64,000 bases of DNA, taken from the sequence record NC_014467.1. One strand, written 5' to 3'. The notes below the pieces were generated by a model, which saw only the letters and a list, made by a program, of their open reading frames with translations, was not told where the DNA came from and searched no databases. Source of the DNA: Escherichia phage RB16. Positions 3,960 to 56,267 of the stretch are shown here, one piece after another; position 1 is the stretch's first letter; every line of letters begins with the position of its first letter. A program made the translations under genes and the position numbers.

Positions 3960-3988
3960 ACTATAACAAAAAGCCTCCCGCGATGCAA
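3960..3988 (-). promoter_or_regulatory. sigma70-like promoter embedded in stem-loop (PeSL-like): -35 TTGCAT, 17-bp spacer, -10 TATAGT
   Basis: Read on minus strand; the -35 lies inside hairpin AGCCTC...GAGGCT followed by TTTTTGT; upstream of the SprT-like gene. Confidence 0.45.
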
Positions 3989-4004
3989 GAGGCTTTTTGT
4001 AAAT

Positions 4005-18615: not shown

Positions 18616-18822
18616 TTATCGGGTACTTTTTACAACCCATCGAGAGAATGCAGGAAATACACCTACAACAGCAACGGTAATCACCACCCATACAGCGATT
18701 TTACCCACAGTCAATAGAATCAGCGGAGAGAATACCCACCACCAGGAAGCAGTAGCCATAAGGCCAACTTGTGCGAGTTTTAAACCCAACAGGATCAGAA
18801 ATACAACGGATAAAATTTTCAC
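18616..18822 (-). CDS. small membrane protein (GTG start)
   Basis: 68 aa, highly hydrophobic; GGGGCCGTAGCCCC hairpin immediately upstream. Confidence 0.4.
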   Translation of the reverse strand: MKILSVVFLILLGLKLAQVGLMATASWWWVFSPLILLTVGKIAVWVVITVAVVGVFPAFSRWVVKSTR

Positions 18823-18850
18823 AGTTTACCTTTAGGGGGCCGTAGCCCCG

Positions 18851-20602: not shown

Positions 20603-20640
20603 GATTCACCTGTTAAGGGGGCAAAAGCCCCCAGTTATTA

Positions 20641-24913: not shown

Positions 24914-24942
24914 AATATAACAAAGCCCTTGCAGAAATGCAA
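24914..24942 (-). promoter_or_regulatory. PeSL-like promoter: -35 TTGCAT inside hairpin AGCCCTTGCA/TGCAAGGGCT, 17-bp spacer, -10 TATATT
   Basis: Same architecture as other copies; located after the regA stop. Confidence 0.5.
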
Positions 24943-24953
24943 GGGCTTTTTGA

Positions 24954-26898: not shown

Positions 26899-26958
26899 AA
26901 TATACCTTCAAATGTTATCAAAAAGGGGCCGTAGCCCCTTCGTTACCGATTGTTTATC

Positions 26959-27929: not shown

Positions 27930-27974
27930 ATCTACCTCAAACTTTCAAATTGGGGGCTTACGCCCCCGTAAGCA

Positions 27975-32477: not shown

Positions 32478-32503
32478 ACCCCTTCGGGGGTTTTGAGGTA
32501 TAT

Positions 32504-33523: not shown

Positions 33524-33797
33524 CAGATATGAAAAATATTTCGGTGAGAACCCCCGATATTCTCACCTGTTGCGTATGCTGGGAATGAAACATATCATTG
33601 CCACTTCTGACGAAGCAGGGGAAACCAGCGCAGTTTGTTTGACCATCATGAAGGGTGCATGGCATTCATCACGAACATGGTCAATCTTCATGCTTGATAC
33701 ACTGGACGACGATACGCTATCATATACTATTGATTCATCGGTTGTTCAATTGATCACTGAATTATGTGAACGGATTTTAAATGAAACTAAAAACTAA
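33516..33797 (+). CDS. hypothetical protein (GTG start)
   Basis: 93 aa track ORF beginning on GTG; may be a remnant next to the homing endonuclease insertion. Confidence 0.25.
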   Translation: MHSRYEKYFGENPRYSHLLRMLGMKHIIATSDEAGETSAVCLTIMKGAWHSSRTWSIFMLDTLDDDTLSYTIDSSVVQLITELCERILNETKN

Positions 33798-34311
33798 ATC
33801 ACATGGAGGTGGAAACCGAACAATTGATGATGAAATTTCTTCAATAAATGAACTACTTCCTATGTTGGATGTTGATGTTGTATTAGGAAAGATATACTGG
33901 AAAAACTCACCTCGTAAGAGCGTCCCTGCTGGAACTGAAGCAGGGAGTAAGACAAAACATGGTTACGTTGCTATCGGGTATAAAAAGACGTATTATAGAC
34001 GACATCGAATAATATTTTACGTCGCTAATGGTTATCTTCCTCTCGTAGTAGATCACAAACACGGTGTTGAATCTGGTGATGGAATAGATAACCTGCAAGA
34101 CATCACGCAACAACAAAACTCCGTTAAAATGAGAATGAGTAGAAGGAATTCTTCTGGGTTTAGAGGGGTTTCCTTTCACCAAAAATCAGGAAAATGGCAA
34201 TCATGTATTGTGTATAATAGAAAAACAATATATCTTGGTTTGTATGAAACACCAGAACTTGCACATAGTGCATATACAGACAAGCGAAAAGAATTATTTG
34301 GTGAAATATGA
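33781..34311 (+). CDS. HNH-AP2 homing endonuclease (Mob-like)
   Basis: 176 aa; HNH_3-type core YLPLVVDHKHGVESGDGIDNL and AP2-type DNA-binding region GVSFHQKSGKWQSCI...YLGLYETPELAHSAY; inserted between gp47 and gp46. Confidence 0.7.
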   Translation: MKLKTKSHGGGNRTIDDEISSINELLPMLDVDVVLGKIYWKNSPRKSVPAGTEAGSKTKHGYVAIGYKKTYYRRHRIIFYVANGYLPLVVDHKHGVESGDGIDNLQDITQQQNSVKMRMSRRNSSGFRGVSFHQKSGKWQSCIVYNRKTIYLGLYETPELAHSAYTDKRKELFGEI

Positions 34312-36005
34312 AATTAAATTTCCGTAAAATTAAGTATCAAAACATCTTATCAGTGGGTAATACCCCGATCGAACTTGAATTCGATACTGCAAAGAAAACC
34401 CTGATCACGGGTAAAAATGGTGGTGGTAAATCCACACTGATCGAAGCGTTGACGTATGCTCTTTTTGGTAAATCATTTCGTGATTTAAAAGTCGGGCAAC
34501 TGGTAAACAGTGTCAACAAAAAGAAATGTCTGGTTGAACTGGATATTGAATACGGGAAAGATTCGTACAAAGTCGTTCGCGGACAAAAGCCGAAAGTATT
34601 CGAGATCTGGAAAAACGGTGATAAGTTAGCAGAAGATTCAGCAGCGGGTGATTATCAATCTCAGCTTGAATCCATGCTCAATATTAACCTGGTTGGATTC
34701 AAACAGGTAATCGTGTTGGGTACTGCTGGCTATACTCCATTCATGGAACTGAAAACACCGGATCGCCGTAAACTGGTTGAAGACCTGTTGTCGCTATCGG
34801 TTATCAGTGAAATGGATAAGCTGAACAAATCATATGTCCGTGGTGTTAATCAGCAGTTGGATACCCTGTCAATGCAGGTTAACCACATCCAGCAGCAGAT
34901 CGCTACACACCAGCGCTTCATTGATGAACAGCGAGCTAAAGCGAACCAGAACAACGCACGATACAAAGAGATCTACGATAGCCACGTTGAAACCGCTAAG
35001 AACATCAAAGCACAGCTTATGCAGTTGCAAGCGGAGATCGCAGAAACGGTGATCACTGGTGCAGACCGAACGGAAGATATAAACAAACTCCGTGATGGCT
35101 ATACGCGCCTCTCTATGACTGTAGAACAGTTTAAAAAGCTGGAAGTGATGTATCAGAAAGGTGGTGAGTGTCCGGCCTGTAAACAGGCGATTAAGCCCAC
35201 TCCTGAACGCATGGAAGAGATCGCAAACAACATCAAAGCGGGTACGCAACGATTAACGCTGATCAAAACCAAACAGGACGAGTTGCAAGGCATTATGAAC
35301 GAGTTGCTTCAACAGCAACGCGCACTGAATGCTATGAAAACGAAATACGAAGCCCTGAAAGGTACGCTGCAAAATGAAGTTGCCAACGCTAAACGCGCAC
35401 AAGCGATCATGGAACAGGCAAGCGCGGAAGTTGTTATTGATGAAGAACCTGTTAAGCAGTTACAACAACAGGAAGCAGATCTGAACGATAAACGTCAAGG
35501 ATATGTGAAAGAAAAATATATCCGTGGTATCGTTACAGATATGTTAAAAGATTCTGGTGTAAAAGCCAGCATCGTAAAACGTTATATCCCGTACTTCAAC
35601 AAGCAGATCGCATACTATCTGGATCTGTTGGGCGCTGACTACCAGTTCACTTTAGATGATGAATTCAACGAATCAATCAAATCACTGGGGCGCGATGATT
35701 TTAGTTACGCATCATTTAGCCAGGGTGAACGCGCACGAATCAACCTTGCGTTGCTTATGACCTGGCGTGATGTAACAAGTAAAGTTTCTGGTGTTGATTT
35801 ATCGCTTCTGGTACTAGATGAAATCTTTGATGGTGCAATGGATAAAGAAGGTGGATTTGCAGTCAGAGCATTACTGGATGATATTGAAGGTAATGTTATT
35901 GTAATCAGTCATCAGGATTTAGATCCACAAGAATTTCATCGACATATTGTTATGTCTAAAGTAGGGAGATTCACCAAATGCAAGATAGTAAACAATGATT
36001 ACTAA
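34308..36005 (+). CDS. 46: recombination endonuclease subunit (gp46, Rad50/SbcC-like ATPase)
   Basis: 565 aa; Walker A GKNGGGKST; coiled coil with zinc hook CPACK; Walker B/D-loop LLVLDE. Confidence 0.85.
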   Translation: MKLNFRKIKYQNILSVGNTPIELEFDTAKKTLITGKNGGGKSTLIEALTYALFGKSFRDLKVGQLVNSVNKKKCLVELDIEYGKDSYKVVRGQKPKVFEIWKNGDKLAEDSAAGDYQSQLESMLNINLVGFKQVIVLGTAGYTPFMELKTPDRRKLVEDLLSLSVISEMDKLNKSYVRGVNQQLDTLSMQVNHIQQQIATHQRFIDEQRAKANQNNARYKEIYDSHVETAKNIKAQLMQLQAEIAETVITGADRTEDINKLRDGYTRLSMTVEQFKKLEVMYQKGGECPACKQAIKPTPERMEEIANNIKAGTQRLTLIKTKQDELQGIMNELLQQQRALNAMKTKYEALKGTLQNEVANAKRAQAIMEQASAEVVIDEEPVKQLQQQEADLNDKRQGYVKEKYIRGIVTDMLKDSGVKASIVKRYIPYFNKQIAYYLDLLGADYQFTLDDEFNESIKSLGRDDFSYASFSQGERARINLALLMTWRDVTSKVSGVDLSLLVLDEIFDGAMDKEGGFAVRALLDDIEGNVIVISHQDLDPQEFHRHIVMSKVGRFTKCKIVNNDY

Positions 36006-36570
36006 AAACTGGGACGACGAATTTCAAGCCGAGATTCGTCGTCGGTTTTACCATGTAAACGGGGTTTTGTATCACAAGACGGAGAGTAAACAAACTGCTT
36101 TTTCTCCGGCGGGATACTATTTCAAACCTGGTGATATGGTGAAATGTCACAAAACTAGGAAAAAGACTCCATATTTACAGATTTGTATGCGATATGAAGG
36201 GAAGTCTAACTATCTATACGTACATAGGGTTGTGTGGTTTCTTGAATATGGGTATCAGGTTGATACGATCGACCATATCGATCTAAATCCTTTAAATAAT
36301 GATCCATCGAATCTTAGAGAAGCAAGCACACAGCAGAACCATTACAACAAAAATGGAAAACCTAACACTTCCTCCACTTACAAGGGTGTATCATGGGATA
36401 AATCAACTTGCAAATGGAAAGTGGGTATTCAGCATAATAAGAAAAAGATTCATTTAGGATATTTTGATGATGAAGTCGAAGCGGCTAAGGCATACGATGC
36501 AAAGGCAATTGAAATTGGTGGACAATATGCGAGGTTAAACTTCCATGATTATGTTAGAACGAGAATTTGA
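35995..36570 (+). CDS. HNH-AP2 homing endonuclease (Mob-like)
   Basis: 191 aa; HRVVW...IDHIDLNPLNNDPSNLR HNH_3 motif and AP2-like KGVSWDKSTCKWKVGI...LGYFDDEVEAAKAY. Confidence 0.7.
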   Translation: MITKNWDDEFQAEIRRRFYHVNGVLYHKTESKQTAFSPAGYYFKPGDMVKCHKTRKKTPYLQICMRYEGKSNYLYVHRVVWFLEYGYQVDTIDHIDLNPLNNDPSNLREASTQQNHYNKNGKPNTSSTYKGVSWDKSTCKWKVGIQHNKKKIHLGYFDDEVEAAKAYDAKAIEIGGQYARLNFHDYVRTRI

Positions 36571-36813: not shown

Positions 36814-38511
36814 ATGATTAACGAAAAAATGACACACCGCGAAGCGTTGGAAATCTTAGGGGCCACGGGTACTGAATCCAAAGCTGAAATGTCCAAACTC
36901 TTCAAACGTGCTTCTCTGCGTAATCACCCCGATCGTGGTGGTAGCACAGAACTCATGCAAAAAATTAACCAGGCATATGACGTAGTAACGAGAACAAACA
37001 GTTCTGGTGAAACTATGATGGATATGCGAGCGCGTCACGCAGCGAATAAAAAAGCGTGGGAAGAAAAACTGGATGCGTATTTTGTTGTTGCTAAGAACTA
37101 TTTCAGCACGAAATTTAACGCACAGGAATTCGCTGAATACTTCACCAAATACACCGGACAGCCGACGACCTTCACACAGGTAGTCAAGAAAGATACAATT
37201 TCCGTATCTGCTGTGTTCCGTTTCACTTCTGGTGATGCTCACTTTGATTTCGCTTTCTACTGCAAGCCAGAAGAAGGTAAAGGTTTGATGTCTCCTGATG
37301 CAAGCGCATTGGGTAGTGTTTCTGTCAATACTCTGGTACTGGTTGGAACCAAAAAACATAAAATGGCAAGCCGTGAATATCAATGGGGCAAAAACCCAGA
37401 TAAGATCACACCGGAAAGCCTGTTCCCGTCCAAGAAACTTGCATCAATTTTCAGCCCGACACAAAAGAACCTCAAGTTCAAACGTGCTGACTATATGACT
37501 TCTTTCCGCAAGCACTTAGACGCAGAAATCAGCGGCAATGATATCTATGTTCCTGTAGGCGACCTGAAAGTTCGTTTCTATCGTCATGTAATGATGCGTA
37601 AAGGTGCGTATGTGTTTAGTGCGGTATACGACCCAGCGGTAAGTAAATTCCGTTCTGCTGCAAACCTTCGCGGTACTATGTTTGAAGACGAAGACGGCGC
37701 ATGTTTGGATATGATTATCGACACTTTCAAAGAAATGCAGAAAGCAAAACCGAACGTTAACGGTATTGTCAGTATCATTGACAAGATGAACGCAGAATTC
37801 GCAGCGGGACACCGTTCAGCATCTTTCGTCAAACGTATGGCACAGCAAGCAGCAGCACCGAAGCCGGAAGAAAAGCCGAAACGCACTGTTAACCGTATCA
37901 GCAAAGATGATTATTTCAACGCATTGAAACAAGCGGGTGCAACATTCCGTAGCAACTACGGTGAGTTTGATAACGGCGCTGGATTGACGTTCCACTTCAA
38001 ACGCGAGATCAGCAACCGTAAAGGCTTCTGGAGTTTCAGCAGTTTTAATTTCATGCACTCCGGTCAAAGTCATGTTGAATGGTTGAAAGATATCGACATT
38101 GACGAAGACAGCAAAGGTGCAAGTATCGGTCTGATGGTTGATACTCTGAAACAGTTGCGTGGTGTTGCTGATTGGTATACTGCAAGAAAGATCCTGGAAG
38201 CGATGCGCGATAACTTCAAAGCTGGTAAGTTCTCCGCACCACACGTTAAGAAAGAAGCCGAACAGAAACGCACTGAGGCGCAAGCTAAGGACGAGTTAGG
38301 CGCACAGCCTACCAAACCCCAGGGAGCGAAGAAAGAAGCCCCAGCAGTTGATAAGGCTCACGAGGCACAGATGGATCGTGAGAAGTCACAGATGAATGCA
38401 ACCATTCGTTCTATGCTCTCTGCCCTGGTTAAAGCCGGACGCAAAGACACGCCGGAAGAAATTAAAAAAGCAGTCGATGAAGCAATCGCTCTTTGGCGCT
38501 TGAAACACTAA
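36814..38511 (+). CDS. J-domain (DnaJ-like) protein, about 566 aa
   Basis: Start placed at MINEKMTHREALEILG (RBS GAGGAA); canonical J-domain with HPD motif (LRNHPDRGGSTELMQKINQAYDVV); the remaining ~490 aa have no recognised domain. Confidence 0.6.
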   Translation: MINEKMTHREALEILGATGTESKAEMSKLFKRASLRNHPDRGGSTELMQKINQAYDVVTRTNSSGETMMDMRARHAANKKAWEEKLDAYFVVAKNYFSTKFNAQEFAEYFTKYTGQPTTFTQVVKKDTISVSAVFRFTSGDAHFDFAFYCKPEEGKGLMSPDASALGSVSVNTLVLVGTKKHKMASREYQWGKNPDKITPESLFPSKKLASIFSPTQKNLKFKRADYMTSFRKHLDAEISGNDIYVPVGDLKVRFYRHVMMRKGAYVFSAVYDPAVSKFRSAANLRGTMFEDEDGACLDMIIDTFKEMQKAKPNVNGIVSIIDKMNAEFAAGHRSASFVKRMAQQAAAPKPEEKPKRTVNRISKDDYFNALKQAGATFRSNYGEFDNGAGLTFHFKREISNRKGFWSFSSFNFMHSGQSHVEWLKDIDIDEDSKGASIGLMVDTLKQLRGVADWYTARKILEAMRDNFKAGKFSAPHVKKEAEQKRTEAQAKDELGAQPTKPQGAKKEAPAVDKAHEAQMDREKSQMNATIRSMLSALVKAGRKDTPEEIKKAVDEAIALWRLKH

Positions 38512-38527
38512 CTGGTTATGCTATAAT
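38500..38527 (+). promoter_or_regulatory. sigma70-like promoter with extended -10: TTGAAA, 16-bp spacer, TGcTATAAT, overlapping the terminator hairpin 38528-38557
   Basis: Near-consensus hexamers; hairpin GGGAACTG...CAGTTCCC + TTTTTT directly downstream. Confidence 0.5.
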
Positions 38528-38568
38528 GGGAACTGTTGAAAAGCAGTTCCCTTTTTTATGAGGTGAGT

Positions 38569-38796: not shown

Positions 38797-39050
38797 AACT
38801 ACCAAAACACACAACCCTGTTAACCCGCGAAAAACTTCATTCTGTTGAATGGAGTCCGTTAGATGTGATGGTGTTCGATCTGGAATCCAAAATCATTAAC
38901 GCTCATGTTAACGGATTGAGTATCTTTTCTGTTGAATTTGAAAAGATTCGCGGGTACAATGAAGCCTGTAAAGACAAATTGCGCGTCATGGTTGAAGCTA
39001 TGGGCTACATCGTGACTATTGAAGACAACAAAATGTGGATCGCGCTATGA
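38793..39050 (+). CDS. hypothetical protein
   Basis: Start placed at MKLPKHTT; ATGA coupling on both sides. Confidence 0.4.
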   Translation: MKLPKHTTLLTREKLHSVEWSPLDVMVFDLESKIINAHVNGLSIFSVEFEKIRGYNEACKDKLRVMVEAMGYIVTIEDNKMWIAL

Positions 39051-40484: not shown

Positions 40485-40524
40485 ACAAAGGGGGCGAAAG
40501 CCCCTTTCTTAACAAGGTAAGATA

Positions 40525-42777
40525 ATGAGTGATATTAAAACAGTAGTAAAATCTTCTGGCGTAAGTCAGACATTTGAAAAAGAAAAACTGTTCAAAGTCC
40601 TTAATTGGGCGAGTGCTGGAAAGAATATTGATGTTAACGCATTCCTTGAAAATGTTGTTGACCTGCTTCGTGATGGTATGACTACCAAACAGATCCAGGC
40701 TGTAGCAATCAAGTATGCAGCGGATCGAATCTCCGTTAAAGAACCTGACTGGCAGTATGTAGCGGCTAACCTCGAAATGTTCGCCCTTCGTAAAACCGTT
40801 TACGGGCAGTTTGACCCGATCCCGTTCTACGAACACATCACTAAGCTGGTTGAGGCAGGAAAATACGATAAAGAAATCCTGACCAAATGGACTAAATCCG
40901 ATATCGAATATTTCGAAGAGAATATTAATCACGATAAAGATTTTGAATTCTCTTATGCTGGCGTTCAACAGTTGATCGGGAAATATCTGTTGCAGGATCG
41001 CACCAACGGCGATATCTACGAAACACCACAGTATGCATTCATGCTGATTGCGATGTGTTTACACCAGGATGAACCGCGCACCCTGTCGGCGTTTAATCAT
41101 GTGGTTGACTTCTATAACGCAATTTCGGATCGTAAACTGTCATTACCTACGCCTATTATGGCGGGTGTGCGTACTCCTACGCGTCAGTTCTCCAGTTGTG
41201 TTGTAATCGAATCTGGTGATTCTCTGGGTTCTCTGAACGCTGTTACGTCCGCGATCGTGAAATATATCTCTCAACGTGCGGGTATCGGTGTCAACGCCGG
41301 ACACATTCGCGCTATGGGTTCAAAAATCCGTGGTGGTGAAGCAGTCCATACAGGCGTTATCCCGTTCTGGAAACACATTCAGACGGCGGTTAAATCTTGT
41401 TCCCAGGGTGGCGTTCGTGGTGGTGCAGCAACCCTGTATTATCCGATCTGGCATCTTGAAGTTGAAAACCTGCTGGTTCTGAAAAATAACCGTGGCGTTG
41501 AAGAAAACCGTATTCGTCACCTGGACTATGGCGTACAGCTTAACGATTTGATGTATAAGCGTTTAATCAATAACGATTACATCACTCTGTTCAGCCCTGA
41601 CGTTGCGAATGATCGCCTCTATGACGCGTTCTATCAAGCGGATCAGACTGAGTTTGAAGAACTCTATACCAGTCTGGAAAAAGACCCAGCGGTACGCAAG
41701 AAACGTATTAAAGCGGTAGATCTGTTCCAGTTGCTTGTTCAGGAACGCGCACAGACCGGACGCAAATACATTTTCAACAGTCACCATGTAAACCAGCAGG
41801 GTAGTTTCTCTGTTCCGATTCGTATGTCGAACCTGTGCTGTGAAATCGCGATCCCAACTTCACCGCTGGATGATGATGATAAACTGGCTGGCGAAATTGG
41901 ACTGTGTACGCTTATGGCGATCGTTCTCGATAATGCCGATATAAGCGAATTCCCAGCCCTTACACGCATCGCAGTACGCGCACTGGATAACTTGCTGGAT
42001 TACCAGAACTACCCTGTTGCGGCGGCTCTGAAAGCCAAACAGCGTCGTTCTCTGGGTGTGGGTATCACCAACTATGCATCATGGCTGGCAAGCAACTATT
42101 GCGACTACTCCGAAGCATACGCCGGAAACGTTCATGAGTTGATGGAAGCGTTTCAATTTAACCTGCTGGTTGCCTCTATGGAACTCGCACAGGAACGCGG
42201 TGCATGTGGACTGTTCCACGAAACGAAATATGCACAAGGGCTGTTGCCTATTGACTGGTACTGCAAAAACGTTGATGAACTGGCATCACCTGTGTATAAC
42301 TGCGACTGGGAATGGTTACGCGGTGAAATCAAAAAACATGGCTTGCGTAACTCAACACTTTCTGCTTTAATGCCTTGTGAAAGTAGCTCACAGGTGAGTA
42401 ACTCAACCAACGGGATCGAACCTCCACGCGGCCCTGTGAGTGTGAAATCTTCTAAGGAAGGTTCATTCAATCAGGTAGTACCGAACCAGAATAATCAGAT
42501 TGACTTCTATGATTATCTCTGGACAATGGCAAAACGCGGAAATAAAGGTTATCTGGCTCACGTAGCGGTTATGCAGAAGTTTGTTGATCAGGCTATCTCT
42601 GCAAACACCAACTATGATCCGGCTAACTTCCCAGATGGTAAAGTGAAATCTGAAATCATCCTTGAAGATCTGCTGTATGCAAACTATTTCGGCATCAAAA
42701 CGCTGTACTACCACAACACCCGCGACGGTGCAGGTGAGGAAGAAGCGGAAGATTCATGTGAGGGATGCAAAATTTAA
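40525..42777 (+). CDS. nrdA: ribonucleoside-diphosphate reductase large subunit (class Ia)
   Basis: 750 aa; N-terminal ATP-cone; catalytic region NLCCEI; C-terminal Cys pair CEGCK. Confidence 0.9.
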   Translation: MSDIKTVVKSSGVSQTFEKEKLFKVLNWASAGKNIDVNAFLENVVDLLRDGMTTKQIQAVAIKYAADRISVKEPDWQYVAANLEMFALRKTVYGQFDPIPFYEHITKLVEAGKYDKEILTKWTKSDIEYFEENINHDKDFEFSYAGVQQLIGKYLLQDRTNGDIYETPQYAFMLIAMCLHQDEPRTLSAFNHVVDFYNAISDRKLSLPTPIMAGVRTPTRQFSSCVVIESGDSLGSLNAVTSAIVKYISQRAGIGVNAGHIRAMGSKIRGGEAVHTGVIPFWKHIQTAVKSCSQGGVRGGAATLYYPIWHLEVENLLVLKNNRGVEENRIRHLDYGVQLNDLMYKRLINNDYITLFSPDVANDRLYDAFYQADQTEFEELYTSLEKDPAVRKKRIKAVDLFQLLVQERAQTGRKYIFNSHHVNQQGSFSVPIRMSNLCCEIAIPTSPLDDDDKLAGEIGLCTLMAIVLDNADISEFPALTRIAVRALDNLLDYQNYPVAAALKAKQRRSLGVGITNYASWLASNYCDYSEAYAGNVHELMEAFQFNLLVASMELAQERGACGLFHETKYAQGLLPIDWYCKNVDELASPVYNCDWEWLRGEIKKHGLRNSTLSALMPCESSSQVSNSTNGIEPPRGPVSVKSSKEGSFNQVVPNQNNQIDFYDYLWTMAKRGNKGYLAHVAVMQKFVDQAISANTNYDPANFPDGKVKSEIILEDLLYANYFGIKTLYYHNTRDGAGEEEAEDSCEGCKI

Positions 42778-42806
42778 CGGAGAAGCCCCGAAAGGGGCTT
42801 TTTGAT

Positions 42807-43295
42807 ATGATAACACAATCGCGATTGAAAGAATTATTGACGTATGACAAAGAAACTGGTATTTTTCACTGGAAAGTAAAACTGAATAACAACCATGACA
42901 TAACAAAACCTGCTGGCGTTGTGTATGATGGATATGTTAGGATACAGGTAGACGGTAAAAAATATCGAGCGCACCGATTAGCGTGGTTGTATGTATATGG
43001 CTATATGCCAGAACTTATCGACCACAAAAACGGAATAACTACCGATAATTGGATAGATAATTTGCGGATTGCTTCATGCACTCAAAATCAATACAACAGC
43101 AAGATTCGAAAAGATAACACGTCTGGAATCAAAGGCGTTTCTTTTCATAAAAGAACTGGAAAATGGCAAGCAAAATGCCGTGTTGATGGAATAGTTCATT
43201 ATTTGGGATTATTCCACACAACAACCGAAGCCGAATCCGCTGTAATTGCGTTTCGACATAAACACCATCAAGAATATAGTAACGACGGGAAATAA
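42807..43295 (+). CDS. mobE: HNH-AP2 homing endonuclease between nrdA and nrdB (MobE position)
   Basis: HNH_3 motif HRLAW...IDHKNGITTDNWIDNLR and AP2-like GVSFHKRTGKWQAKC; T4 also carries mobE between nrdA and nrdB. Confidence 0.7.
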   Translation: MITQSRLKELLTYDKETGIFHWKVKLNNNHDITKPAGVVYDGYVRIQVDGKKYRAHRLAWLYVYGYMPELIDHKNGITTDNWIDNLRIASCTQNQYNSKIRKDNTSGIKGVSFHKRTGKWQAKCRVDGIVHYLGLFHTTTEAESAVIAFRHKHHQEYSNDGK

Positions 43296-49780: not shown

Positions 49781-49857
49781 GGCCCTTTAGCTTAATTGGT
49801 TAGAGCGGGTGACTCATAATCGCGCGGTTGCTGGTTCGAATCCAGCAGGGGCCACCA
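49781..49857 (+). tRNA. tRNA with anticodon CAU (Met, or Ile if lysidine-modified)
   Basis: Hand-folded cloverleaf: acceptor GGCCCTT/AGGGGCC, T-loop GGTTCGAATCC, anticodon loop CTCATAA, 3' CCA encoded. Confidence 0.75.
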
Positions 49858-49862
49858 AATAC

Positions 49863-49938
49863 GCAGGTGTAGTTCAATTGGTAGAATATCTGGTTTCCAT
49901 CCAGATTGTTGAGGGTTCGAGTCCCTTCACCTGCTCCA
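49863..49938 (+). tRNA. tRNA-Gly (anticodon UCC)
   Basis: Acceptor GCAGGTG/CACCTGC, T-loop GGTTCGAGTCC, anticodon loop TTTCCAT, 3' CCA encoded. Confidence 0.75.
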
Positions 49939-51774: not shown

Positions 51775-51808
51775 CAGCCGTTGCCGAAAGGTAGCGGCTT
51801 TTTTCGTT
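51775..51808 (+). terminator. rho-independent terminator (10-bp stem with G-U wobbles, GAAA loop, U-run)
   Basis: AGCCGTTGCC-GAAA-GGTAGCGGCT followed by TTTTTTCGTTTTT. Confidence 0.55.
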
Positions 51809-51825
51809 TTTATGCAAAATAATGC

Positions 51826-51854
51826 TTGCACTGAATCAGGCTTTCTTGTATCTT
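51826..51854 (+). promoter_or_regulatory. sigma70-like promoter: -35 TTGCAC (within aATGCTTGCAc), 17-bp spacer, -10 TATCTT
   Basis: Shares the aATGCTTGCA -35 context with promoters at 9966-9994 and 56209-56238. Confidence 0.4.
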
Positions 51855-53219: not shown

Positions 53220-53821
53220 AACCAGTTATTCTTACCGACATTGACGGGATCGCCGTAAAATGGCAGTCGGGGTTGCCGTTCTTTTTGTCTAAACACAACA
53301 TGCCGACCGATATCGCGCTGGATATGGTTACGGATGAAAAGTTCCGCGATATGACCGAAATCTTCGGGTGTGATCACCAACTGGCGAAAATTCTCATGGA
53401 AGAATACAACAACAGTTCGTTTATTCGCTATCTAAGCGCGTATGACGATGCGTTGATTGTGATCAACCGTCTGAAAGCAAAGTATGATTTCGTGGCTGTC
53501 ACGGCGCTGGGAACTACTCCTACGGCAAGCCTGAACCGTATTGCGAACCTGAACACGCTGTTCCCTTCTGCATTCAAAGAGGTTTGTGTTGTCGGTCACG
53601 GCGAAACGAAAGTACATCGTTACCTGGAAGCCAAAGCAAAATATGGCGATCGTTTAGTATGTTTCATTGATGACCTTGCAGTAAACTTGAATGAGTGTCA
53701 TAACGTCATCAGTCAGTTGCCGTTATTCCATATGTTGCGTGGCGAACGTAGTGAACCGAGTGTACCTCATACTAAAGTGAATAACTGGCATGAAATTGAA
53801 AAAGCAATTGAGAACTCTTGA
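53216..53821 (+). CDS. HAD-superfamily hydrolase, putative 5'(3')-deoxyribonucleotidase
   Basis: 201 aa; N-terminal DxDG motif (ILTDIDGI) and late DD motif (VCFIDDLAVN). Confidence 0.5.
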   Translation: MKPVILTDIDGIAVKWQSGLPFFLSKHNMPTDIALDMVTDEKFRDMTEIFGCDHQLAKILMEEYNNSSFIRYLSAYDDALIVINRLKAKYDFVAVTALGTTPTASLNRIANLNTLFPSAFKEVCVVGHGETKVHRYLEAKAKYGDRLVCFIDDLAVNLNECHNVISQLPLFHMLRGERSEPSVPHTKVNNWHEIEKAIENS

Positions 53822-54341
53822 TGAAGAAACGCAAGGTATAGAAAACCTACTACAATGTATTCGAGTAGAACCAGAAACCGGAAAATGTTTCTGGTTGGAA
53901 AAGAGAAGTAATAAAATTCCTGCTGGAAGTGAAGCAGGTTCTTTTCATAAATCAAGTGGATATACGCGAATAAAATTCGAAAATGCGATGTACATCCGGT
54001 CAAGGGTGATATTTTATTACGTTAATGGTTATCTTCCAGTGATGGTTGACCATGTTCACGGTGTTGAATGCGGTGATATGATTTCTAATCTAAGGGAGTC
54101 CAATCAGGTAACAAATCAACAAAACCGCACACGGAATAAAAATAATACCGTTGGGTTTAAGGGCGTGTCATTCAACAAGAAATCGCAAAAATATAGCGCC
54201 AAAATCACTTTACATGGAGTGACTAAGTGGTTAGGATTTTATGATTCTGCCGAGGAAGCAAGTGAAGCATATAAGGCCAAAGCACTCGTTTCCTTTACAC
54301 ATAATGAAAGGTACTTAAATGATCTTACAGATTCTGAATGA
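53790..54341 (+). CDS. HNH-AP2 homing endonuclease (Mob-like)
   Basis: 183 aa; YLPVMVDHVHGVECGDMISNL and GVSFNKKSQKYSAKI...WLGFYDSAEEASEAY; paralog of 33781..34311; inserted upstream of DNA ligase. Confidence 0.7.
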   Translation: MKLKKQLRTLDEETQGIENLLQCIRVEPETGKCFWLEKRSNKIPAGSEAGSFHKSSGYTRIKFENAMYIRSRVIFYYVNGYLPVMVDHVHGVECGDMISNLRESNQVTNQQNRTRNKNNTVGFKGVSFNKKSQKYSAKITLHGVTKWLGFYDSAEEASEAYKAKALVSFTHNERYLNDLTDSE

Positions 54342-55842: not shown

Positions 55843-55860
55843 ATAGCACTTTTTGCTAAA

Positions 55861-55896
55861 AAGCCCCTTGCATGAGTAAGGGGCTTTTGTTATATT
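55861..55896 (+). promoter_or_regulatory. PeSL-like cassette: terminator hairpin AAGCCCCTT...AAGGGGCTT containing -35 TTGCAT, TTTTGT, -10 TATATT
   Basis: Part of 55841-55935, near-identical to 10641-10737 (reverse complement), including 5'UTR ACATCGAAACGAAACAGACAAAAGGAAC. Confidence 0.55.
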
Positions 55897-55933
55897 ACAA
55901 ACATCGAAACGAAACAGACAAAAGGAACATCCC

Positions 55934-56206: not shown

Positions 56207-56208
56207 TG

Positions 56209-56238
56209 CTTGCTTCCTGGGTAATGTAGTGGTACATT
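56209..56238 (+). promoter_or_regulatory. sigma70-like promoter: -35 TTGCTT (aATGCTTGCtt), 18-bp spacer, -10 TACATT, within 10-bp perfect hairpin GGGTAATGTA...TACATTACCC
   Basis: Followed by 5'UTR ATATCGAAACGAAAGGAG shared with the PeSL copies. Confidence 0.4.
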
Positions 56239-56267
56239 ACCCATATCGAAACGAAAGGAGAAACATC

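Follow-up and report, generated by a model that had tools for sequence, protein, structure and literature searches.

In the 64,000-nucleotide stretch of Escherichia phage RB16 analysed here (record NC_014467.1; henceforth the window, position 1 being its first letter), the gaps between genes repeatedly carry a composite element in which an RNA hairpin is interlocked with a promoter-like sequence. We conclude with considerable confidence that these sites are cassettes of the promoter-early stem-loop (PeSL) type, as carried by T4-like phages of the RB43/RB16 group, in which a terminator is fused to the sigma70 early promoter of the next gene. They display a common sequence anatomy, enrichment over chance, foldability, hairpins conserved across orthologs and indel junctions at cassette edges. 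The recurrence of a promoter-with-hairpin layout at gene junctions had been put forward in an original prediction, and it is borne out: TTGCA-N17-TAnnnT with an overlapping hairpin occurs six times in the window as against 0.2 +/- 0.4 expected from 200 dinucleotide shuffles. The composites and their relatives are as follows.

3960..4000, minus strand: nested PeSL between gene 52 (topoisomerase) and an SprT-like open reading frame (ORF); hairpin with A/U-tract extension 3966-4000, -35 TTGCAT 3983-3988, -10 TATAGT 3960-3965, ATG 27 nt downstream.
9966..9994, minus strand: promoter only, AAATGC-TTGCAA-N17-TATATT followed by the conserved leader ACACACATCGAAACGAA; RB43 ortholog Pe:10033.
10211..10284, minus strand: cassette with a TAGCACTTTTTGCTAAA block; hairpin 10238-10262 (-15.2 kcal/mol, z -4.2, no U-run) enclosing the -10 TATAGT 10244-10249, with TGA before it; leader CATCGAAAC.
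10644..10734, minus strand: full 91-nt cassette of stop codon, ATAGCACTTTTTGCTAAA, nested PeSL, leader ACACACATCGAAACGAAACAGACAAAAGGAAC and ATG; at its nested site 10681, hairpin 10689-10718, -35 TTGCAA 10704-10709, -10 TATATT 10681-10686.
11417..11452, minus strand: nested PeSL downstream of dexA; hairpin AAAACCCTTGCA-UUCG-TGCAAGGGTTTT 11425-11452, -35 TTGCAT 11440-11445, -10 TATTTT 11417-11422.
18213..18281, minus strand: tandem type; terminator 18257-18278 (AAAAGCCCCTTTCGGGGCTTTTTT), then TTGCAA-N17-TACCTT 18213-18241 with TGA before the -10.
24914..24949, minus strand: nested PeSL between regA and a small ORF preceding the DNA polymerase gene 43; hairpin 24922-24949, -35 TTGCAT 24937-24942, -10 TATATT 24914-24919.
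38500..38557, plus strand: promoter then hairpin; TTGAAA 38500-38505, N16, TATAAT 38522-38527 with TGC before it; hairpin 38528-38551 directly after the -10 (-16.5 kcal/mol, z -6.5), U-run 38552-38557 (U6); RB43 terminator at 38851-38874.
51776..51854, plus strand: tandem type; terminator hairpin 51776-51799 (-17.9 kcal/mol) with U-run and, 27 nt on, AATAATGC-TTGCAC-N17-TATCTT 51826-51854, itself devoid of a hairpin (z +0.1).
55843..55933, plus strand: the 91-nt cassette in a second copy, located 3' of the DNA ligase gene 30, with ATAGCACTTTTTGCTAAA, nested PeSL and leader ACAAACATCGAAACGAAACAGACAAAAGGAAC; at its nested site 55868, hairpin 55859-55888, -35 TTGCAT 55868-55873, -10 TATATT 55891-55896.
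56207..56267, plus strand: hairpin over the -10; AATAATGC-TTGCTT 56210-56215, N17, TACATT 56233-56238, leader CCCATATCGAAACGAAAGGAG; hairpin 56218-56243 spanning spacer and -10 (-15.6 kcal/mol, z -4.3, no U-run); RB43 ortholog Pe:58043, where the hairpin overlaps the -35 instead.

Five of these sites (3960, 10681, 11417, 24914 and 55868) carry the full composite on the coding strand, running from the start of the -35 to the end of the -10 at 3988-3960(-), 10709-10681(-), 11445-11417(-), 24942-24914(-) and 55868-55896(+). In each, a stop codon is followed by an A-tract, a GC-rich 5' arm that runs into TTGCA(T/A), a loop, a 3' arm lying within the 17-bp spacer, a T-run and the TAnnnT hexamer. 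With the -10 hexamer numbered -12 to -7 and the -35 hexamer -35 to -30, the A-tract falls at about -44 to -40 and is followed in turn by the GC arm (-39 to -36), the 3' arm (-29 to about -19) and the T-run with its TG (-18 to -13). This T-run has the form T3-5-G-T (UUUUGU in RNA) and supplies the TG of an extended -10 (T-15 G-14). The loop is 3-4 nt long at four of the five sites and 10 nt at 10681. As had been claimed, hairpin and U-run stand close after the stop codon at all five, 2-20 nt separating the stop codon from the cassette, and an ATG with a Shine-Dalgarno sequence lies 27-37 nt after the -10. One element of the proposed anatomy has to be corrected: TTGCA was placed in the 3' arm, whereas on the transcribed strand it closes the 5' arm or belongs to the loop, TGCAA being present also in the 3' arm only at the palindromic sites 11417 and 24914.

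The predicted RNA folds of the nested sites have energies of -22.9 (3960), -14.8 (10681), -17.2 (11417), -19.8 (24914) and -21.1 kcal/mol (55868), with z-scores of -7.1, -2.5, -6.1, -6.2 and -5.5, respectively. A sixth site, 9966, had been counted with them; there the promoter sequence is present and the hairpin is missing (-1.2 kcal/mol, z +0.8). The promoter geometry by itself, TTGCA(T/A) 17 bp upstream of TAnnnT, is likewise in excess, with 14 occurrences of TTGCA-N17-TAnnnT in the window and 3.0 +/- 1.8 in the same shuffles. The sites at 38500, 51826 and 56209, described earlier as variants of one layout, do possess promoters and hairpins, but the hairpin is placed differently at each, giving three sub-layouts, and two further composites, 10211-10284(-) and 18213-18281(-), had been overlooked. 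A GC stem, short loop and U-rich tract, as in an intrinsic terminator, are found at the five nested sites and at 38528-38557, 51776-51804 and 18257-18278; the hairpins 10238-10262 and 56218-56243 lack the U-run. The structural parts of a PeSL are likewise recognisable. The stem-loop is placed over the -35 and spacer at five sites, over the -10 at two, directly downstream of the -10 at one and upstream at two; the predicted promoter, read from sequence, is TTGCA(T/A)-N17-TAnnnT, preceded by an A-tract and extended by TGn at the -10; and the setting is the gap of a T4-like genome between co-oriented genes, from stop codon to Shine-Dalgarno sequence and start. All sites are intergenic and share the orientation of the flanking genes.

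The leaders downstream of these promoters are A-rich and predicted to be unstructured. A leader motif, ATCGAAACGAA, starts about 7-8 nt past the -10 of four promoters, its four copies comparing with 0.49 expected:

9949-9959, minus strand: leader motif ATCGAAACGAA.
10664-10674, minus strand: leader motif ATCGAAACGAA.
55903-55913, plus strand: leader motif ATCGAAACGAA.
56245-56255, plus strand: leader motif ATCGAAACGAA.

When 21 distinct copies, taken from the window, the related phages Lw1, RB43 and Miller, and related contigs of IMG/VR, are aligned, what is held fixed can be told from what drifts. Little or no change is seen in TTGC, in three T's of the run, in G-14 or in the T, A and final T of the -10; the arms and the loop are variable, and the hairpin takes four registers relative to the fixed promoter boxes. 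The spacer of a sigma70 promoter has no sequence requirement of its own; at the nested sites it is complementary to the -35 plus its upstream flank. With four registers in use among the copies and hardly any change in the main stem, we replaced column covariation with a comparison of folding energies in chimeras whose halves were swapped between copies. Native pairs of 5' and 3' halves averaged -18.3 kcal/mol as against -15.7 for the chimeras, a mean cost of 2.6 kcal/mol for a swap of the 3' half, and none of 5,000 permutations matched the native value. The same is visible at single loci: at site 3960 the stem is GCCTCTTGC/GCGGGAGGC in the window and GCCCTTGC/GCAGGGGC in Lw1, so that the sequence differs between orthologs while the hairpin is kept. 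The strict conservation of promoter spacing together with the retention of hairpin foldability argues for a regulatory function under selection.

The cassettes are, moreover, retained at orthologous positions in phages of Escherichia, Citrobacter, Klebsiella, Enterobacter and Cronobacter. It is accordingly most improbable that the sites recur by chance or because a single sequence was duplicated recently, without any function under selection. The cassettes at 10644 and 55843 are indeed about 90% identical over 91 nt, as duplication would have it; however, the five nested sites are unlike one another in stem, loop and register while all keep the promoter geometry and the hairpin, the orthologous positions are conserved across five host genera, and shuffles yield 0.2 such sites. 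As a negative control, a scan of IMG/VR with TTGCA-N12-YTTTGTTATNNT returned 122 matches, most of them isolated chance hits that fold weakly and lie in unrelated contigs; a second pattern, GGGGCNNNGCCCC, had the wrong loop length and was uninformative. A strong hairpin enclosing a TTGCA -35 was also seen in contigs unrelated to T4-like phages (L025, L028/L098, L046, L080 twice and L017, near-identical loci included). These hairpins finish in a T-run just before a TATAAT-like -10, though the search pattern itself favoured T-runs. The occurrence of the same design in unrelated viral contigs indicates that the nested layout is not confined to T4-like phages.

PeSLs were defined in phages RB49 and phi1 as a succession of stop codon, AT-rich region, sigma70 promoter, stem-loop, Shine-Dalgarno sequence and start codon, with five subclasses in which the stem-loop lies between the -35 and -10, over either box, upstream or just downstream (Arbiol et al., 2010; PMC2839356). 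In lacZ fusions the RB49/phi1 elements showed both promoter and terminator activity; recombination between cassettes was proposed, mini-circles being known for these elements, and PeSL-like sequences near RB43 g43 were mentioned (PMC2839356). The class was later extended to T4/PST and KVP40/nt-1 (Comeau et al., 2014; PMC4122927). The window elements share with those of RB49/phi1 the order of blocks and may share the concentration among small accessory ORFs and at indels, and the RB49 PeSLs that we examined offer the same layouts, among them the -10 covered by a hairpin, and a comparable leader (CCCATCAAGACAA vs CCCATATCGAAACGAA; RB49 CATCAAGACAA). They differ in that RB49/phi1 promoters are near-perfect TTGACA/TATAAT, with internal stem-loops of the form Gn-loop-Cn without a U-tail, whereas in the RB43 group the -35 is TTGCA and a whole terminator with A- and U-tract is nested at a fixed offset.

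Early promoters of these phages were previously noted to be A-rich and UP-like at -40 to -44 and rich in G and T ahead of -12 (Nolan et al., 2006; PMC1524935). In the tables of the same study, the RB43 orthologs of the five nested sites appear both as predicted early promoters (Pe:4005, 11463, 12201, 26374 and 57694) and as TransTerm terminators of confidence 100 (3977-3995, 11434-54, 12170-91, 26343-64 and 57704-25). This kind of element, which the original prediction did not identify as a PeSL, had thus already been described, and was already predicted in this group. Re-analysis of the published coordinates (PMC1524935), with promoter windows of 51 nt, allows the lineages to be compared:

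RB43: terminator fully inside the promoter window in 12 of 43, ending 28-31 nt from that window's 5' end; 2-22 nt upstream in 0.
RB49: terminator inside the promoter window in 1 of 51; 2-22 nt upstream (2-20) in 11.
RB69: terminator inside the promoter window in 0 of 58; 2-22 nt upstream in 7.
44RR: terminator inside the promoter window in 0 of 36; 2-22 nt upstream in 12.

The tandem junctions of T4, RB69 and 44RR (PMC1524935) resemble the window sites in that an early transcript ends and the next begins in a short gap, with A-rich UP-like sequence and GT-rich sequence before the -10; they differ in that the terminators of RB69 and 44RR lie 2-22 nt upstream of the 51-nt promoter window and never inside it. 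Hence, the nested canonical terminator is a habit of the RB43 group and a subclass of PeSL, not a new kind of element. The palindromic hairpins 11425-11452 and 24922-24949 (TTGCA...TGCAA between A- and T-tracts) resemble terminators on both strands, and in the RB43 tables of 2006 such palindromic hairpins were called as early promoters on either strand (Pe:67321/67362, 85858/85900, 100879/100921 and 178604/178646). Overall, the observation is real and beyond chance, its architecture is the known PeSL one, and it adds little beyond the PeSL papers.

A Mot box, (a/t)(a/t)(a/t)TGCTT(t/c)A, is centred at -30, 11-13 bp from the -10, and in T4 the motA gene is located beside gene 52. Some of the window promoters invite comparison with this system, since at three sites (9966, 51826 and 56209) a TGCTT-containing sequence, AA(T/A)ATGCTTGC, stands upstream of a TAnnnT -10, as in the MotA middle promoters and PmSLs of T4, RB69 and nt-1; PmSLs with Mot boxes occur in vibriophage nt-1 (PMC4122927). 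That the sites are MotA/AsiA-type middle promoters with ATGCTTGCA as the Mot box is nevertheless scarcely credible. At these three sites about 20 bp, and not 11-13 bp, separate the TGCTTGC element from the -10, the nested sites are without TGCTT, and RB43 has neither a motA ortholog nor a middle-promoter consensus (Nolan et al., 2006; PMC1524935). Nor did a scan of ten ORFs of the 64-kb window, including both beside gene 52 (the SprT-like one and others of other families), detect a MotA domain. The original prediction of sigma70 and not MotA dependence holds because RB43 is reported to be without motA.

The relatives also show genes coming and going at these sites. In comparison with Lw1, RB43 and Miller the window shows approximately 17-20 indels, five of which have an end at a cassette edge. 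One case is denV, encoding endonuclease V, which in RB43 (10836-11474) and Miller (10702-11279) is flanked by a nested PeSL and a second promoter core; the window (10673-10686) and Lw1 have a single cassette and no denV, with the junction in the shared -10/+1 sequence GTATATTAC.CACAT. The TAGCACTTTTTGCTAAA edge of cassette 10211-10284 is exactly where a small ORF of relatives (166-170 bp) stops, a 269-bp LysM ORF of RB43 and Miller stops at the A-tract of 11417-11452, a 330-bp ORF of Lw1 and RB43 starts right after the 38500 cassette and a 353-bp segment specific to the window starts right after the 56207 cassette. The association has P 1e-4 against uniform placement and P 0.03-0.13 against random gene junctions.

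Such junctions raise the possibility, to which we give some but clearly lesser credence, that the cassettes are mainly recombination modules, serving PeSL-mediated modular shuffling and mini-circles, with regulation secondary. It draws on the 91-nt cassette being present in 5-8 copies per genome in 252 phage records, on denV being bracketed by a repeated -10/leader sequence in RB43 and Miller that is single in the window, on the four further indels at cassette edges and on the occurrence of the same cassette in unrelated T1-like phages amid non-homologous flanking genes. However, the indel enrichment is marginal against gene junctions; four other window-specific insertions are HNH-AP2 homing-endonuclease genes that are not linked to cassettes; and the promoter spacing and hairpin foldability are strictly conserved, which argues for selection on the regulatory function.

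By analogy with their relatives and with the published elements, the window sites would possess both promoter and terminator activity, and we propose the following working for them. The cassette would be one module of about 40 bp in which nearly each base from about -44 to -7 serves twice. The A-tract would be the UP-like A-rich region of the early promoter and also the pairing partner of the U-tract; the GC-rich 5' arm would continue into the -35 TTGCA, the spacer would provide the 3' arm and the U-tract UUUUGU would close with the TG of the extended -10. A polymerase arriving from the upstream gene would copy the full hairpin and U-tract and terminate, or be attenuated, within or just before the -10 (about -13 to -8), and the host sigma70 holoenzyme would bind the same DNA as a duplex and initiate about 7 nt past the -10. 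The promoter's own transcript would be without the hairpin and therefore not terminated. At 38500 the 5' arm contains the predicted +1, and RNA from this promoter would accordingly be without the complete stem, which read-through RNA would have. As an outcome, small accessory genes would be placed in insulated, separately driven early transcription units, and the repeated cassettes would present short stretches of homology where genes can come and go.

The claimed coupling of termination to re-initiation is supported as far as a predicted terminator fused to a predicted sigma70-type promoter goes, the 'coupling' being seen as juxtaposition and not as a mechanistic hand-off. The nesting could still be more than compaction, in that a polymerase remaining on the DNA after termination could be recaptured by sigma70 at the overlapping promoter; since the terminator is nested at a fixed register, polymerase would be released on top of the next -10. 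The lineage-wide move of the terminator into the promoter and the cassette shared across phage families are seemingly not spelled out in the literature, and the notions of a hand-off and of a portable module to which they give rise are speculative and rather improbable.

Several points weigh against the reading as terminator-promoter cassettes. A literature search for transcript maps found no transcript 5'/3' end data for this phage or its genus. Column covariation at a fixed register in the gapless alignment of the 21 copies was not significant, two pairs having changed on both sides, a result matched in 58 of 500 shuffles. The -35 TTGCAT agrees with TTGACA only at TTG, so that it is the TGn and the -10 that must account for promoter strength. 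The U-tract is short, with 3-5 U broken by a G, and termination may hence be partial; the hairpin at 10681 is weaker than the others, with its long loop and modest z-score. The indel figures against random gene junctions belong with these points.

Some of the same features would suit hairpins whose main role is to stabilise or process RNA 3' ends, or to attenuate while terminating little, in which case their overlap with promoters would be a matter of genome compaction. We consider this unlikely as the principal role, and it is in any case compatible with the terminator-promoter reading and not exclusive of it. In its favour, beyond the short and interrupted U-tracts, are the hairpins of 10211 and 56207, which are without any U-run, and the many other intergenic GC hairpins of the window that lack a promoter. 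Conversely, the five nested sites have the canonical shape of a terminator (A-tract, GC stem, U-rich tail and, at four of them, a loop of 3-4 nt), their RB43 orthologs score 100 in TransTerm, and an RB49 PeSL stem-loop cut lacZ expression as much as the rrnB T1 terminator (PMC2839356).

The 91-nt cassette (10644-10734 and 55843-55933) extends the comparison beyond the T4-like phages, as it also matches T1-like siphoviruses, with 572 records matching the Drexlerviridae version. In vB_EcoS-2004V, KOX1 and haarsle, which represent three genera of Drexlerviridae, the blocks and their order are those of the window, namely stop codon, ATAGCACTTTTTGYTAAA, GC hairpin, TTTTGYTATTAT, a CATCRAAACGA leader and a Shine-Dalgarno sequence. 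The vB_EcoS-2004V sequence is 75-77% identical to the window cassettes over 88-90 nt, and for the T1-like cassette as a whole the figures are 74-77% over 85-90 nt. The Drexlerviridae version differs in having a hairpin 11 nt shorter, an extended -10 only with no TTGCA -35, and one copy per genome. None of the flanking genes of the T1-like cassette proved homologous to window genes when tested for this, and a literature search that included motif strings found no published description of the T1-like cassette. A search of 5,426 E. coli genomes gave no match to the 91-nt cassette, which argues that it is not a host or prophage element.

At the head of this cassette type the block TAGCACTTTTTGYTAAA (TAGCAC-N5-TGYTAAA; (A)TAGCACTTTTTG(C/T)TAAA) is invariant in 8 of 8 aligned copies and always stands 22 nt or 33 nt (22+11) before the -10:

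10718-10734, minus strand: invariant block, window.
10271-10287, minus strand: invariant block, window.
55844-55860, plus strand: invariant block, window.
L129:1499-1516: invariant block, T1-like siphovirus locus.
L130:1203-1220: invariant block, T1-like siphovirus locus.
L131:1203-1220: invariant block, T1-like siphovirus locus.

From its sequence, the block is a candidate for a small hairpin, in which the C-to-T change keeps a G-U pair, or for a T-tract/A-tract UP-like element. A sigma54 reading of TAGCAC-N5-TGCTA was rejected on inspection, AG standing in place of GG and the GC element being 2 nt too close. The sharing of the cassette, without its flanking genes, between T4-like myoviruses and many T1-like siphoviruses suggests a portable regulatory module with an extra RNA or protein partner.

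As to the genomic setting, a 9-kb stretch of the window shares 96.8% identity with Escherichia phage Lw1 and about 91% with RB43, Miller and CfP1, all of which belong to Pseudotevenvirus (Straboviridae). The coding strand is minus for 1-31.6 kb and plus beyond a switch at about 31.7 kb; the minus-strand order is rIIB-rIIA-...-52-39/60-...-dexA-dda-...-43-regA-...-32-...-rnh, and gp55, 47, 46, frd, td, nrdAB, ligase and baseplate genes follow on the plus strand. An Rfam search found no family at the hairpins and returned the two tRNAs only. RB43 is annotated with one tRNA where the window has the pair at 49781-49938; RB16 was reported with 2 tRNAs and 6 HNH-AP2 genes, and RB43 with 1 tRNA (Petrov et al.; PMC2993671). 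The HNH-AP2 ORFs of the window occupy segments missing from Lw1 and/or RB43 and explain several of the indels not at cassettes.

49781-49857, plus strand: tRNA-Met (CAT).
49863-49938, plus strand: tRNA-Gly (TCC), adjacent to the former.
33781-34311, plus strand: HNH_3 + AP2 ORF, putative homing endonuclease (this and the next three, 176-191 aa).
35995-36570, plus strand: HNH_3 + AP2 ORF, putative homing endonuclease.
42765-43295, plus strand: HNH_3 + AP2 ORF, putative homing endonuclease.
53790-54341, plus strand: HNH_3 + AP2 ORF, putative homing endonuclease.

Intergenic GC hairpins with no recognisable promoter were also seen, at 12727-12752, 18760-18850 and 26899-26958 on the minus strand and at 20603-20640, 27930-27974, 32478-32503, 40485-40524 and 62760-62786. 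Three of them carry an identical GGGGCTACGGCCCC, and such hairpins often stand directly 5' of a Shine-Dalgarno sequence. They probably act simply as terminators, attenuators or RNA stabilisers.

Taken for what they are, the nested sites offer a clean natural case of maximal overlap between terminator and promoter, useful as a compact insulator part, while denV and the other junctions provide concrete illustrations of gene gain and loss at cassette edges. The lineage-specific nesting and the cassette shared across families are small leads and not discoveries. For the annotation of the RB43 group, which now includes many therapy candidates against Klebsiella, Enterobacter, Citrobacter and Cronobacter, the sites are to be read as early promoters with embedded terminators that would bound short, insulated units of accessory genes.

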